This document shows, piece by piece, positions 30,389-37,018 of a stretch of DNA of 64,000 bases. The stretch is taken from sequence record OL956808.1. The stretch is one strand, 5' to 3'. Numbering within the stretch: position 1 is the stretch's first letter; each line of letters begins with the position of its first letter. This DNA comes from Escherichia phage vB_EcoM-S1P5QW. Made by a program: the position numbers and the translations under genes. The notes below the pieces were generated by a model. It did not search any database, was not told the DNA's origin, and worked only from the letters and a program-made list of their open reading frames with translations.

Positions 30389-30700
30389 ATGGTTTATGTA
30401 TATGCGATAGTTTACCGAGACAAAGACGGATTTACGGCGCCAGTTCCGCTTGATGAACATCGTCCTGCTGTATTTTTTGAATGGAATATTGCTGACAAAG
30501 TATTTACCACTCTTAAAGAGCAGTATCAACTAGCTTTAGGTAAGGGAATTCCAAGATTAGTTGAGACTCCACGTAAATTTTGGTTTAATAAAATAGAAGT
30601 TAAACATGTTAAGCCTGATGTAGATACACAAAGATTATATCAACGAATTCTAGATACTGGGCGTATTGTTAGTATTCCAATTGCAGGGACTTTCCGATGA
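30389..30700 (+). CDS. Hypothetical protein (103 aa), T4 dda.1 position
   Basis: ORF coupled to dda. Confidence 0.6.
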   Translation: MVYVYAIVYRDKDGFTAPVPLDEHRPAVFFEWNIADKVFTTLKEQYQLALGKGIPRLVETPRKFWFNKIEVKHVKPDVDTQRLYQRILDTGRIVSIPIAGTFR

Positions 30701-32016
30701 CATTTGATGATTTGACCGAAGGCCAGAAAAATGCCTTTAACATTGTTATGAGGGCTATTAAAGAAAAGAAACATCATGTAACTATTAATGGACCTGCTGG
30801 TACTGGTAAGACTACTCTTACTAAGTTCATCATTGAAGCTTTAATATCTACGGGTGAAACTGGTATTATTTTAGCAGCTCCTACTCATGCAGCTAAAAAG
30901 ATTCTTTCAAAACTGTCGGGGAAAGAAGCGAGTACTATTCACAGTATTCTTAAAATTAACCCGGTAACATATGAAGAAAACGTTCTTTTTGAACAAAAAG
31001 AAGTACCAGATTTAGCTAAATGCAGGGTATTAATCTGCGATGAAGTGTCAATGTATGATAGAAAGCTATTTAAAATTCTGCTTTCAACTATCCCGCCGTG
31101 GTGTACTATAATTGGAATAGGGGATAATAAGCAAATTAGACCTGTTGACCCAGGAGAAAATACTGCTTATATCAGTCCATTCTTTACACATAAAGATTTT
31201 TATCAGTGTGAACTCACTGAAGTTAAACGCAGTAATGCTCCTATTATTGATGTAGCTACTGACGTTCGTAACGGTAAGTGGATTTATGATAAAGTTGTTG
31301 ACGGGCATGGAGTACGTGGATTTACTGGTGATACCGCTTTACGCGATTTTATGGTAAATTATTTTTCAATTGTTAAATCATTAGATGATTTGTTTGAAAA
31401 TCGTGTGATGGCATTTACGAATAAATCTGTTGATAAGTTAAATAGCATTATTCGTAAAAAGATTTTTGAAACTGATAAAGATTTTATTGTCGGTGAAATT
31501 ATTGTAATGCAGGAACCATTAATTAAAACATATAAAATTGATGGAAAGCCTGTATCAGAAATTATTTTTAATAATGGGCAATTAGTTCGTATTATAGAAG
31601 CAGAGTATACATCGACGTTTGTTAAAGCTCGTGGTGTTCCTGGAGAATACTTAATTCGTCATTGGGATTTAACAGTAGAAACTTACGGCGATGATGAATA
31701 TTATCGTGAAAAGATTAAAATAATTTCATCTGATGAAGAGCTATATAAGTTTAACCTGTTTTTAGGTAAAACGGCAGAAACTTATAAAAATTGGAACAAA
31801 GGCGGAAAAGCTCCATGGAGTGATTTTTGGGATGCTAAATCACAGTTCAGTAAAGTGAAAGCACTTCCTGCATCAACATTCCATAAAGCTCAGGGTATGT
31901 CTGTAGACCGTGCTTTCATTTATACGCCTTGTATTCATTATGCAGATGCTGAACTAGCTCAACAACTTCTTTATGTTGGTGTCACCCGCGGTCGTTATGA
32001 TGTGTTTTATGTGTGA
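30697..32016 (+). CDS. dda: Dda DNA helicase (SF1B)
   Basis: 439 aa; Walker A GPAGTGKTT, DEVSM; matches recalled T4 Dda. Confidence 0.95.
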   Translation: MTFDDLTEGQKNAFNIVMRAIKEKKHHVTINGPAGTGKTTLTKFIIEALISTGETGIILAAPTHAAKKILSKLSGKEASTIHSILKINPVTYEENVLFEQKEVPDLAKCRVLICDEVSMYDRKLFKILLSTIPPWCTIIGIGDNKQIRPVDPGENTAYISPFFTHKDFYQCELTEVKRSNAPIIDVATDVRNGKWIYDKVVDGHGVRGFTGDTALRDFMVNYFSIVKSLDDLFENRVMAFTNKSVDKLNSIIRKKIFETDKDFIVGEIIVMQEPLIKTYKIDGKPVSEIIFNNGQLVRIIEAEYTSTFVKARGVPGEYLIRHWDLTVETYGDDEYYREKIKIISSDEELYKFNLFLGKTAETYKNWNKGGKAPWSDFWDAKSQFSKVKALPASTFHKAQGMSVDRAFIYTPCIHYADAELAQQLLYVGVTRGRYDVFYV

Positions 32017-32515: not shown

Positions 32516-32750
32516 ATTAAGTTGGTACCAGTTTAAATCTCTTATGGCAAATGTTAAAGCTGTCATTCAAGAAAATTCAGGACCTGATAATGTTACTATT
32601 CGCGAAAAAGCTTTAAAGATAGTATACAGTCTTGAAGAGATACAAAAAGATATTGAATCTATGGCAAAATTTATTGATGAGCCTATTAATAAAGTTTATA
32701 TTCAAGACTATACTGTAGGCCAAATTCGTGATTTAGCGAGGAAAATTTAA
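32493..32750 (+). CDS. Hypothetical protein, tandem paralogue 3 (possibly starting at ATG 32508)
   Basis: Paralogous to previous ORF; ATGA-coupled to dexA. Confidence 0.55.
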   Translation: MRRLLMIELSWYQFKSLMANVKAVIQENSGPDNVTIREKALKIVYSLEEIQKDIESMAKFIDEPINKVYIQDYTVGQIRDLARKI

Positions 32751-33433
32751 TGTTTGATTTTATTATAGATTTTGAAACAATGGGAAGCGGTGAAAAAGCA
32801 GCTGTTATTGATTTGGCTGTAATTGCTTTTGACCCTAACCCAGAAGTAGTTGAATCATTCGATGAACTAGTTTCACGTGGCATTAAAATCAAATTTGATT
32901 TAAAAAGCCAAAAAGGACATCGTCTTTTTACTAAAAGCACTATCGAATGGTGGAAAAATCAGTCTCCTGAAGCTCGAAAAAATATTGCACCATCCGATGA
33001 AGATGTAAGCACCATTGATGGTATTGCAAAATTCAACGATTACATCAATGCACATAATATCGATCCTTGGAAATCTCAAGGCTGGTGCCGTGGAATGTCG
33101 TTTGATTTTCCAATTTTAGTCGATCTCATTCGCGATATTCAACGTCTTAATGGCGTTTCCGAGAATGAGCTTGATACATTTAAGTTAGAACCATGTAAAT
33201 TCTGGAATCAGCGTGATATTCGTACCAGAATTGAAGCACTTCTGCTTGTTCGTGATATGACCACGTGTCCTCTTCCAAAGGGAACTTTAGATGGATTCGT
33301 TGCACATGATTCTATTCATGACTGTGCGAAAGACATCCTGATGATGAAGTATGCTTTGCGATACGCTATGGGTCTTGAAGATGCTCCGTCAGAGGAAGAT
33401 TGCGATCCTCTGTCTCTTCCAACAAAACGATAA
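32750..33433 (+). CDS. dexA: Exonuclease A (DnaQ-like 3'-5' exonuclease)
   Basis: 227 aa; MFDFIIDFETMG exo motif; matches recalled T4 DexA. Confidence 0.9.
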   Translation: MFDFIIDFETMGSGEKAAVIDLAVIAFDPNPEVVESFDELVSRGIKIKFDLKSQKGHRLFTKSTIEWWKNQSPEARKNIAPSDEDVSTIDGIAKFNDYINAHNIDPWKSQGWCRGMSFDFPILVDLIRDIQRLNGVSENELDTFKLEPCKFWNQRDIRTRIEALLLVRDMTTCPLPKGTLDGFVAHDSIHDCAKDILMMKYALRYAMGLEDAPSEEDCDPLSLPTKR

Positions 33434-33496: not shown

Positions 33497-34009
33497 ATGA
33501 AAATTTATCGTGTTGAATCATCGTTTAGCGCATTAAATGATGATAGTGGTATAGTCAAAATTAGGCAAGAGTTATGCGTTCAATCAACTCCTTATCGTGG
33601 ATTTGATTCTATGAAAACTCGAACTTGGCTAAAATTTTGCGGTATTAATTCATCGTCATTTCATCATCATAGCGATAATTATGAAAGCCATGAAAGTATT
33701 CCTATTCCACACGATGATAAGTTATTAGTTGAAAATGCTAATGATGTTATTAAAACTAAATGGAATAAAGATTATTCACGAATTGAAAATTATATTCCAT
33801 TGTGGTTTATTGCATTATATCATTTTGCTTTCGCTAGTGAATATGATATGATGAGATGGTTCACTCGAGAAGAGCGTGAAGACTTAAAAGAACGTGGAAT
33901 GTACATTGCGATTTATGAAGTGCCAGATGACCAAGTTATCATTGGCGGACATCAAGTAATGTTCCGCAAATCGCATGCCGAATTAAAAGGCTTTATTACT
34001 TTAGATTAA
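33497..34009 (+). CDS. Hypothetical protein (170 aa; internal start of track ORF 33458..34009)
   Basis: RBS GAGGATAA before ATG 33497. Confidence 0.55.
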   Translation: MKIYRVESSFSALNDDSGIVKIRQELCVQSTPYRGFDSMKTRTWLKFCGINSSSFHHHSDNYESHESIPIPHDDKLLVENANDVIKTKWNKDYSRIENYIPLWFIALYHFAFASEYDMMRWFTREEREDLKERGMYIAIYEVPDDQVIIGGHQVMFRKSHAELKGFITLD

Positions 34010-34019
34010 AGAGAAAATC

Positions 34020-34457
34020 ATGATTAAAAATAATGCTGTTTATCAATTGAAAAAATTTGATGAAATTAAGAATTTTTCGGTACTGTCTAATACAGCTCAT
34101 AATAAGTTTTGTGAACTTCTTGGTTTAACTGGCGGATATCCTTTTACTGTTATTAGTGTTAATAGCGGAATTCTTATCGGTATGATGTATATTGAAATTA
34201 GAAACTATTATGGAATGGTATCATCGCTTATTATTTATGAAAAAGATTTTAGTCTATTGACAGAAATTGAAAAACCTGAAGATCCAACTGATCTGCTGCG
34301 TAAGGCAGTTTATATTCGTCGTCCATTCGCGAATCCTGTTGGTGGATGGGTGACTGATCAGTGGATTGAAGATGGTGTTGAACTTCTGAACGTAGTTCAT
34401 GCTGGAGAGTACTCTGTAGTTCCTCGCAGCGCAGTGATTAATGTTCGTGTAAGCTAG
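34020..34457 (+). CDS. Hypothetical protein (145 aa), first of three tandem paralogues sharing a C-terminal domain
   Basis: C-terminus GGWVTDQWIEDGVELLNVVHAGEYSVVPRSAV similar to next two ORFs. Confidence 0.6.
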   Translation: MIKNNAVYQLKKFDEIKNFSVLSNTAHNKFCELLGLTGGYPFTVISVNSGILIGMMYIEIRNYYGMVSSLIIYEKDFSLLTEIEKPEDPTDLLRKAVYIRRPFANPVGGWVTDQWIEDGVELLNVVHAGEYSVVPRSAVINVRVS

Positions 34458-34529
34458 TTTACAAACTCTTGGGACCAGAGTATAATGGTCCTGCGGAGTA
34501 TAAATCTTAACAACAAAGAGAGAAAAATT

Positions 34530-35003
34530 ATGATTACTATCGGTGAAATTAAGCGTGTATCGTCTGCATCTCGTTCTAAAGCTGCAGGTCGTTTAGTTGA
34601 AGTGGTAGGACTTCGTACTAATGGTACTGGTCGTGTTAAAGAAGTTAAAGTTCGAATCATTCCTAGTTCTGGAAAAACTGAAACTCAGTACGCTTACGTA
34701 AGTCCTAAATTTCTGGAAACTCGTGTTAGCTCTCATTTTGCTTCTGTTGAAGAAGTTGAATCTACTGAGTCTAATACACAATTTAAATGGGCGTTGTGTA
34801 AAGGCGTTGAATTTGTAACTGATGAAGAATTCGATTATATTGATGATTTCGCTGGTCCAAGTAAAACTGATAGGATGTGTGGCTTCATCACAGACCAATG
34901 GGTTGAAGATGGTGAAAAGCTCTACAATATCGTATTCTTAGGTGACTTCCGGGTTGTTGAAGAATCTGAAATCACTCGTTATGCTTCTCCTCGTAAAGCT
35001 TAA
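34530..35003 (+). CDS. Hypothetical protein (157 aa), tandem paralogue (MotB-region family)
   Basis: N-terminus VSSASRSKAAGRLVEVVG and C-terminus GFITDQWVEDGEKLYNIVFLGDFRVV shared with 35013..35432. Confidence 0.6.
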   Translation: MITIGEIKRVSSASRSKAAGRLVEVVGLRTNGTGRVKEVKVRIIPSSGKTETQYAYVSPKFLETRVSSHFASVEEVESTESNTQFKWALCKGVEFVTDEEFDYIDDFAGPSKTDRMCGFITDQWVEDGEKLYNIVFLGDFRVVEESEITRYASPRKA

Positions 35004-35012
35004 GGAATTATT

Positions 35013-35432
35013 ATGAATATTGTAAATCTCTCTACTGGTGATTACGTATATGTATCCGTTGCTTCTCGTTCTAAAGTTGCAGGAAAGCTGGTTGAAGTTC
35101 TTTCTGTAAGTGATCCAGTTTTTGGTCGTAACGAGGTTAAAGTTCGTGACGCTGATGGTAACATTGGTTATGTCTCAAGTCAGTTCATTGAGCCAGAAGA
35201 ACGCGCATTTAAATGGAAACTTTGTTCTTCAGTTTTAGTTGTAAAAGACCATAAATTCACAATTGCGGCGGCAACAGATGGAACTCCATGGACAACGAAT
35301 CAAGTCGCTGGTTTTATTTCGGACCGTTGGGTAGAAGATGGTGTCAAGCTCTACAATATTGTTTTTGCAGGCCAGTTCATGGTAGTTCCTGAATTCCAAA
35401 TTAAAAAATGGTGCGAAGCAGCTTTAGCATAA
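35013..35432 (+). CDS. Hypothetical protein (139 aa), tandem paralogue (MotB-region family)
   Basis: VSVASRSKVAGKLVEV... and GFISDRWVEDGVKLYNIVFAGQFMVV. Confidence 0.6.
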   Translation: MNIVNLSTGDYVYVSVASRSKVAGKLVEVLSVSDPVFGRNEVKVRDADGNIGYVSSQFIEPEERAFKWKLCSSVLVVKDHKFTIAAATDGTPWTTNQVAGFISDRWVEDGVKLYNIVFAGQFMVVPEFQIKKWCEAALA

Positions 35433-35541
35433 ATTTGCATAAAGTTTAAATTTTTTTTTCATAAAACTATATACATCAGTAGTTGATTATGGTACTATAT
35501 CAATATCAACTACTGATACAGAAAACAACTTGGAGAATAAA

Positions 35542-35811
35542 ATGGAAAATTTAATTATCATCGAGCAATCTTTCAATGATTATGGTATGGCTTACGGTTA
35601 TCGTGCGATAATGGAAGATTCTCGTGGATGTGTTATCGATATTGCTGAATGTAAAGATTTACTGCAGCTTTTGAAGATTGTTCGCAAAAATTGGGATTGC
35701 GAAAATATTAAAGTTCGAGTTGTTACAGAAGAAGAAACTGTTTTTCATGATGTAAAATTCGCTAAAGGTGCTGCTACTCTTCTGAAACGCATCGCTCCAC
35801 TGTTCAATTAA
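35542..35811 (+). CDS. Hypothetical protein (89 aa)
   Basis: ATG 35542 with RBS GGAGAATAAA. Confidence 0.55.
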   Translation: MENLIIIEQSFNDYGMAYGYRAIMEDSRGCVIDIAECKDLLQLLKIVRKNWDCENIKVRVVTEEETVFHDVKFAKGAATLLKRIAPLFN

Positions 35812-36467: not shown

Positions 36468-36644
36468 ATGCCAATGTATGATTATAAATGCCAATCCGAA
36501 GATTGCGGGCATGAATATGAAAAAATTAAAAAGATTTCTGAACGAGAAAATGATGTTTGCCCTAAATGCCATCGTTTGTCTACTCGTCGGCCTTCTGCTC
36601 CTAAGCATGTGAATGGTGGTTTTTACGATTTACTTAAAGGGTGA
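36468..36644 (+). CDS. Zinc-ribbon protein (58 aa), FmdB-like CxnC...CPxC, not in ORF track
   Basis: MPMYDYKCQSEDCGHEYE...CPKCH; ATG 2 nt after upstream stop. Confidence 0.5.
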   Translation: MPMYDYKCQSEDCGHEYEKIKKISERENDVCPKCHRLSTRRPSAPKHVNGGFYDLLKG

Positions 36645-37018
36645 TTATGTTTAAAATCGGTAAGAAATATCGTATTCGCGAAGGCGAAGAAAAGAAATAT
36701 CTAATGTCTGCTATTTATAGGAATGGTTCTATTAATGCTGTAATATCTACAAGCGAATTTATCGTTGAAGATATGAAAGGTCATAATGTTACAATGATTA
36801 GTACAGCATCTGGAAATGATGGAAAAATTCTTCATAGTTGTCAGAGTAATGTTCTAATTTATGATGAAGAATTTGACTTCTTCAAAGAAGTTTCCGAAGA
36901 TTTTGATTTTGAATGTACTATTACTATGAAATCTGGTGACCCTCTTTCTTTTACAGTTAAAGATGAAAGAAGCCGTTTAAGAATTATTAGTCTCCTTCAA
37001 GCTATTAAATTTAAGTGA
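36641..37018 (+). CDS. Hypothetical protein (125 aa)
   Basis: ORF (GTG 36641 or ATG 36647). Confidence 0.6.
   Translation: MIMFKIGKKYRIREGEEKKYLMSAIYRNGSINAVISTSEFIVEDMKGHNVTMISTASGNDGKILHSCQSNVLIYDEEFDFFKEVSEDFDFECTITMKSGDPLSFTVKDERSRLRIISLLQAIKFK

Follow-up and report, generated by a model that had tools for sequence, protein, structure and literature searches.

Bacteriophage T4 encodes MotB, a protein that binds DNA tightly, whether modified or unmodified and whatever its sequence, is toxic on over-production and doubles burst size (PMC6070864, PMC7827196). H-NS and StpA co-purify with T4 MotB only if DNA is present, and the protein alters the H-NS footprint and lifts repression from part of the H-NS regulon (PMC6070864, PMC7827196). 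Patterson-West et al. (2021), who aligned 102 phage homologues, described MotB and MotB.1 as having a conserved C-terminal domain in common and different N-terminal domains, considered that one of motB and motB.1 was probably derived from the other by duplication, and noted more than one copy of motB or motB.1 in several genomes (PMC7827196). In the same study, HHpred results led to a KOW assignment for the N-terminal domain of MotB and, through matches to the eIF5A oligonucleotide/oligosaccharide-binding (OB) domain, to the label of a cold-shock-type OB fold for its C-terminal domain; according to the authors, either domain could account for DNA binding (PMC7827196). For MotB.1, Kim et al. 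(2025) predicted an LSm-like N-terminal barrel shared with GoF and Frd.2, and deletion of motB.1 from T4 gave no laboratory phenotype (PMC12152347). Here, three consecutive open reading frames (ORFs) of Escherichia phage vB_EcoM-S1P5QW (ORF1, ORF2 and ORF3; Table 1) are compared with these proteins. They lie in a 64,000-nucleotide (nt) stretch of the phage sequence (OL956808.1; hereafter, the window), which belongs to the genus Tequatrovirus (T4-like).

Identity of the three ORFs

The three ORFs are related to each other and, among all 257 window ORFs of at least 45 amino acids (aa), match no other ORF below an E-value of 0.05. ORF2 and ORF3 are similar over their full length (39% identity over 152 columns; BLASTP, E 8e-29). 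ORF1 matches ORF2 (E 9e-10) and ORF3 (53% identity over 32 residues; E 2e-11) through a C-terminal stretch only, which comprises 32-37 residues. A profile-profile comparison of MotB-type with MotB.1-type C-terminal domains (hhalign) gave a probability of 98.9% and an E-value of 3e-17 over 37 columns, which together with the BLASTP E-values rules out chance similarity. An earlier note on this DNA, made from the sequence alone, had described the ORFs as a three-member paralogue family with related C-terminal domains and had pointed to an N-terminal VS-ASRSK-AG-LVEV segment common to ORF2 and ORF3. Both descriptions hold: similarity is significant in all three ORF pairs, and the N-terminal segment is recovered by BLASTP and as a repeat in the DNA (D2).

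All three proteins exceed the 25-bit gathering threshold of the Pfam motB family (PF17613). The match covers the full length of ORF2 (141.3 bits, E 3e-41) and ORF3 (71.8 bits), and only residues 104-139, in the C-terminal part, of ORF1 (32.6 bits). PHROG matches agree with this picture. For ORF1, the match to PHROG 2333 (E 3e-66), 78% identity to T4 MotB.1 over 116 residues and the same position upstream of motB all point to MotB.1. Similarly, ORF2 is 46% identical to T4 MotB over 157 residues (E 2e-47) and is placed as T4 motB is, after a conserved promoter and between motB.1 and the cef side. ORF3, annotated in GenBank as 'MotB-like protein', is 37% identical to T4 MotB; because it resembles MotB in sequence but does not occupy the motB position, it is regarded as a paralogue and not as the MotB orthologue. 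By these comparisons, ORF1 is MotB.1, ORF2 is MotB, and ORF3 is an additional MotB-like paralogue that is absent from T4. MotB.2, encoded immediately upstream of ORF1, was also considered as a family member and was ruled out, as it has no Pfam motB match and falls in a different PHROG.

A mechanical reading of ORF2 begins at 34485. Since all homologues begin at MITIGE/MIINIGE, and since the ATG at 34485 overlaps the -10 hexamer of the putative motB promoter, 34530 is the correct start.

Synteny with T4 and identity to its proteins thus confirm the motB region that the earlier note had recognized, in a host-takeover block that is early and dispensable. The description of the family as one of unknown function is out of date, as T4 MotB is an experimentally shown DNA-binding protein (PMC6070864, PMC7827196) and the family is Pfam PF17613. 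The family, its shared C-terminal domain and the existence of multi-copy genomes were already known from the literature and Pfam, and the observation is therefore a correct rediscovery.

Fold of the shared C-terminal domain

Each of the three proteins consists of two small beta-barrels joined by a linker, and conservation across the family is highest in the C-terminal barrel. Its core motif is G-[WFY]-[IV]-[TS]-D-[QR]-W-x-E-x-G-x-x-L-x-N-x-V, and the core detectable by sequence (hhalign) is 37 residues long. In a combined alignment, the MotB.1-type and MotB-type domains can be matched from their first strand (DPTDLLxKAVxIRRP in MotB.1, FKWKLGxGVxF in MotB) to the C-terminus; in MotB, 14-18 additional residues are inserted between strands 1 and 2 and form a long hairpin in the model. 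The barrel extends over approximately residues 88-145 of ORF1 and 84-157 of ORF2.

Two independent AlphaFold2 (AF2) models were obtained, one of full-length ORF1 (predicted local distance difference test score, pLDDT, 84.9) and one of ORF2 residues 72-157 (pLDDT 83.8; predicted template modelling score 0.69). In both, the C-terminal domain has five strands (residues 96-99, 107-117, 120-127, 130-135 and 139-141 in ORF1); a 3-10 turn separates strands 4 and 5, and strands 3 and 4 are not linked by a helix in either model. Such an arrangement follows the SH3-type order and not the OB order. The models thus show the SH3-type barrel of Tudor and chromo-barrel ('Royal') domains, and not the b1-b2-b3-helix-b4-b5 arrangement with OB structural neighbours that an OB fold would have. 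The structural neighbours include the Tudor domains of 53BP1, PHF19, ERCC6L2, SMN and LBR, the chromo barrels of MRG15 and RBBP1, PWWP, BAH and KOW domains, and domain I of EF-P. None of the 60 matches listed for the isolated C-terminal-domain model is described as an OB-fold protein. The matches listed for ORF1 do include full-length EF-P chains, which contain OB domains; among the matches listed, the one EF-P entry of known extent is the isolated domain I (5wxk). Similarly, Foldseek ranks the same fold classes first, with non-significant E-values (best 0.028).

The likeness to Tudor, chromo-barrel and PWWP domains is one of fold, at 9-19% identity and with the Foldseek E-values given above, and no sequence relationship was detected: the domain has no sequence match to any PDB chain, and PDB searches with ORF2 and with the C-terminal-domain profile returned nothing meaningful. 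The domain does carry conserved aromatic residues (W, F/Y). MotB additionally differs from these domains in its long hairpin between strands 1 and 2. It also differs from eIF5A and EF-P, the published HHpred analogues, which join a KOW-like SH3 domain to an OB domain, in that the second domain of MotB is of SH3 type in the models. Judged from the models, a Tudor/chromo-barrel-like SH3-type barrel is the better description of the shared domain, as a fold class and with no claim of homology, and the published OB-fold label is probably wrong. No paper linking MotB to Tudor domains turned up in a search of the literature.

N-terminal barrels and modularity of the family

The N-terminal barrel of ORF1 (approximately residues 1-85) is LSm-like, with five strands (residues 7-10, 42-49, 55-61, 67-73 and 80-83) and one helix modelled at a pLDDT of 70-90. 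The model agrees with the bent five-stranded antiparallel sheet of LSm-like proteins, and the assignment follows that of Kim et al. (PMC12152347). Neither BLASTP nor a hidden Markov model (HMM) detected similarity in sequence between ORF1 and GoF within the window ORF set. In ORF2, the N-terminal barrel is basic and KOW-like, and an acidic linker joins it to the C-terminal barrel; ORF3 has the same two-barrel architecture, with a linker that is short and an N-terminal domain that is not basic. T4 MotB has this two-domain architecture as well. Two distant members of the family (P0240, 24.8 bits; P0246, 22.9 bits) pass the 22.3-bit threshold of Pfam KOW (PF00467) and join a KOW motif to the MotB C-terminal domain. 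No sequence relationship was found by hhalign among the KOW-like N-terminal, LSm-like N-terminal and C-terminal domains, and therefore internal duplication cannot be shown.

A search of 1.84 billion representative proteins with the C-terminal-domain profile returned only 33 clusters at E <= 1e-3. These comprise MotB-type and MotB.1-type proteins (the latter having one LSm-like repeat or two), chimeras and a few distant members. In the chimeric relatives, a MotB-like (KOW-type) N-terminal domain is followed by a MotB.1-type C-terminal domain. As the C-terminal barrel is found combined with various small N-terminal barrels, it is a mobile module. Among the database relatives P0133-P0149 and P0227-P0239, the N-terminal parts of the MotB.1 class are highly variable, with one or two LSm-like repeats and an extra domain of approximately 80 aa; the linker motif IDFDVVSTYVCPVKPLEIKE recurs in this class.

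Proposed function of the two barrels

Overall, the three genes probably encode two-barrel proteins in which the basic KOW-like barrel of MotB binds DNA and the C-terminal barrel docks or self-associates. By extension from T4 MotB, the family would act on the nucleoid early in infection. MotB would coat DNA without sequence preference and remodel the complexes of H-NS and StpA with DNA, thereby raising burst size. DNA binding would be supplied by the basic N-terminal barrel of MotB, and the C-terminal barrel would be a docking or self-association module common to all three proteins, so that the paralogues may differ in the N-terminal barrel that they deliver to a common partner. Any activity of ORF1 and ORF3 is inferred from this scheme.

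Early expression would be expected from T4 and from a conserved promoter directly upstream of motB. The putative promoter (TTTACA, 17-nt spacer, TATAAT) agrees with the consensus at 11 of 12 positions and is identical in T4 and PP01, in the same position between motB.1 and motB. ORF3 begins 9 nt after the ORF2 stop codon, with AAGGA preceding its ATG. Since the promoter lies directly upstream of motB and ORF3 follows closely, the two genes would probably be co-transcribed. Downstream of ORF3, an inverted repeat with 20-nt arms (85% complementary) folds as an outer stem of 13 pairs and an inner stem of 5 pairs, and the whole 103-nt stretch around it (35433-35535) has a predicted folding energy of -21.0 kcal/mol. 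An identical hairpin sequence is present in the motB-cef gap of T4. It is not a classical intrinsic terminator, because no U-run follows the hairpin.

The assignment of DNA binding to one barrel draws on charge. In every MotB orthologue, residues 1-62 are basic (isoelectric point, pI, 9.3-11), while the net charge of the C-terminal domain varies across the family between -7 (ORF2) and +3 and lies at -1 to -4 in all of the MotB.1 class, such that this domain is acidic in ORF1, in ORF2 and in the whole MotB.1 class. Because the C-terminal domain is conserved and yet variable, often acidic, in charge, the N-terminal domain is favoured as the DNA binder, and the charge patterns lean towards it as the DNA-binding part of MotB.

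Several points weigh against this assignment of roles. PWWP domains and some Tudor or chromo barrels bind DNA, so the C-terminal domain may do so too. That of T4 MotB is near neutral (+1) and not acidic, and ORF2 is acidic overall (pI 5.4, compared with 9.2 for T4 MotB). DNA binding is known for the T4 protein only, and its attribution to ORF2 is an extrapolation. Additionally, the N-terminal domain of ORF3 is not basic, neither ORF2 nor ORF3 has a Pfam KOW match at E <= 1, and the fold of the shared domain rests on predictions. A DNA-independent contact between MotB and H-NS was sought and not found (PMC7827196).

A less likely but still credible explanation is the one that the earlier note proposed, namely that the shared C-terminal domain is itself a nucleic-acid-binding module. 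This is one of the two options left by Patterson-West et al. for the tight DNA binding of T4 MotB, and the published HHpred matches to the eIF5A OB domain agree with it (PMC7827196), as do the conservation of the domain and its nucleic-acid-binding structural neighbours, which include a PWWP domain with single-stranded DNA (6kco), MTF2 with DNA (5xfr) and KOW domains. However, the net charge of the domain is not conserved, and its strongly acidic character in ORF2 and its acidity in the MotB.1 class would be unusual for a nonspecific DNA binder. Furthermore, a comparison with the Pfam OB families gave nothing beyond a 13-bit match at chance level.

A more specific version of the two-barrel scheme is doubtful. 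In it, the C-terminal barrel is a phage-specific Tudor-like docking domain whose D-x-W-x-E-[DE]-G face, which is conserved and both acidic and aromatic, recognizes a basic segment of a host nucleoid protein, for instance H-NS or StpA, on DNA, and the paralogues form a toolkit against xenogeneic silencing by directing different nucleic-acid-binding barrels to one host target. If so, the KOW-like barrel that is basic would serve for DNA and the LSm-like barrel perhaps for RNA, and the third barrel of the toolkit would be KOW-like and neutral. In its proposed relief or alteration of H-NS silencing, MotB resembles the H-NS antagonists T7 gp5.5 and T4 Arn and the DNA-bound counter-silencers Ler and VirB. 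These proteins have no sequence or fold relationship to MotB, which differs from them in needing DNA to associate with H-NS and in having no known specific sites.

ORF3 and hybrid motB genes

Of the 773 phage records with a MotB match of any kind (tblastn), 207 contain an ORF3-type gene (at least 80% identity). In T4, the motB stop codon runs directly into sequence that is found downstream of ORF3 here. It is improbable that ORF3, and perhaps ORF1, are redundant or decaying duplicates without a function of their own. Such an explanation would fit the 566 of 773 records in which the only match is below 60% identity, as T4 and most relatives do without ORF3; it would also fit the lack of a phenotype of the T4 motB.1 deletion, the loss of the basic character of MotB from the N-terminal domain of ORF3, and the collapse of tandem copies into single hybrid genes. 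In contrast, the ORF3-type genes of many independent phages are intact 139-aa ORFs that are 83-100% identical, none of the invariant residues of the family is missing from them, and a ribosome-binding site for ORF3 itself is located immediately after motB.

The hybrid motB genes (P0028, P0029 and P0031) combine a T4-type or ORF2-type N-terminal half with an ORF3-type C-terminal half, with junctions at FKWKL or within WVEDG-KLYNIVF. In four of the four contigs read (L006-L009), the hybrid is the only full-length motB-type gene, and a separate motB.1-type gene is located upstream where that flank is present. At the DNA level, the tandem paralogues have stretches of up to 93 nt in common (71% identity), which include exact runs, for example AAGCTCTACAATAT. 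Comparison of these sequences suggests that the hybrid genes result from unequal recombination between tandem paralogues.

Finally, it is very unlikely that RNA polymerase is the docking partner of the C-terminal barrel, in the way that it is for the CarD, Mfd-RID and UvrD/PcrA Tudor-like domains, and that the proteins are true 'modifiers of transcription', as the historical name would have it (the early genetics pointed to a large deletion): the likeness to those domains is at the fold level only, motB knockdown barely changed the T4 transcriptome (PMC6070864), and the co-purifying proteins reported are H-NS and StpA, with RNA polymerase not reported among them.

Genomic context

The 2.7 kb around the locus share 98-99% identity with Shigella phage ESh18 and with Escherichia phages TH09 and JLBYU24; JLBYU24 is classified as Tequatrovirus gizh. 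All genes in this region are on the + strand (Table 1). The locus is upstream of gene 39, as the earlier note stated, in a loose sense only, since six ORFs intervene between ORF3 and the start of gene 39.

Table 1. Position of the motB locus and of neighbouring features within the window
Feature	Coordinates	Strand	Evidence or remark
dda	30697-32016	+	
Three ORFs of ~86 aa	32023-32750	+	Between dda and dexA
dexA	32750-33433	+	
motB.2	33497-34009	+	
ORF1, MotB.1 homologue, 145 aa	34020-34457	+	BLASTP, Pfam, PHROG, AF2 model
Shared C-terminal core of ORF1	34332-34442	+	Residues 105-141, NPVGGWVTDQWIEDGVELLNVVHAGEYSVVPRSAVIN; hhalign, BLASTP, DNA repeat D3
Putative sigma-70-type early promoter upstream of motB	34458-34486	+	Promoter scan
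ORF2, MotB orthologue, 157 aa	34530-35003	+	Pfam, T4 identity, synteny
Shared C-terminal core of ORF2	34869-34979	+	Residues 114-150, DRMCGFITDQWVEDGEKLYNIVFLGDFRVVEESEITR; hhalign, DNA repeats D1 and D3
ORF3, second MotB-like paralogue, 139 aa	35013-35432	+	Pfam, identity to ORF2 and T4 MotB
Shared C-terminal core of ORF3	35298-35408	+	Residues 96-132; BLASTP, family alignment, DNA repeats D1 and D3
Conserved inverted repeat (hairpin)	35475-35517	+	Inverted repeat I1, RNA fold
93-aa ORF, PHROG 3720	35530-35811	+	After ORF3, before cef
cef, goF, 39.2, 125-aa ORF, 89-aa ORF, gene 39			Gene order after the 93-aa ORF
125-aa ORF	36641-37018	+	Between 39.2 and 39.1-like ORF
Gene 39, 606 aa	37351-39171	+	Single ORF

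Several differences from T4 are apparent among the neighbouring genes. Between dda and dexA, there are three tandem ORFs of ~86 aa, compared with two in T4 (dexA.2 and dexA.1); the second and third are paralogous (30% identity, E 9e-10), and the first has no detectable similarity to either. The 93-aa ORF is reduced to a deletion remnant in the 170-bp motB-cef gap of T4 (positions 3484-3653 of L003, the NC_000866.4 locus), which retains the start of the ORF (ATGGAAAAT...) and its last codons (...KRIAPLFN*). Gene 39 is unsplit, compared with T4, in which the large topoisomerase subunit is divided into gene 39 (1,551 nt) and gene 60.

The 125-aa ORF has no counterpart at that position in T4. In the window ORF set, residues 4-86 match the HMM of MotB.1-type N-terminal domains (E 6e-7), and there is a weak match to Pfam FRD2 (E 0.026). 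From its sequence, the ORF seems to be another member of the GoF/MotB.1/Frd.2 barrel family, one that lacks the MotB C-terminal domain. GoF itself did not match the same HMM within that set (E 4), and BLASTP found no similarity of ORF1 to either GoF or the 125-aa ORF.

A frameshift in the T4 reference motB.1

The T4 reference sequence (AF158101.6/NC_000866.4) has one extra G in motB.1, reading GGATTGGAAGATGG instead of GGATTGAAGATGG at approximately positions 4300-4310 of L003, which correspond to 34365-34378 of the window. Therefore, the reference MotB.1 ends at 119 aa, in the middle of the C-terminal motif, and the rest of the domain is encoded in the next frame. The extra G is absent from all 13 other T4, T4T, RB55 and RB59 records listed, and the two annotations read (T4T HM137666 and T4 MT984581) encode a MotB.1 of 143 aa. 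ORF1 thus differs from the reference protein, and resembles that of re-sequenced T4, in carrying a complete C-terminal barrel. Judging from these records, the '13.8 kDa' MotB.1 is either a reference error or a stock-specific mutation.

Implications for the MotB family

The reassignment of the fold and the frameshift in the T4 reference are the only points that may be new to a specialist. An SH3-type rather than an OB fold would change which ligands and which mutants to test. Similarly, experiments that were based on the T4 reference annotation may have used a MotB.1 lacking most of its C-terminal barrel. Together with the charge patterns, these two points could help those who work on the early proteins of T4.

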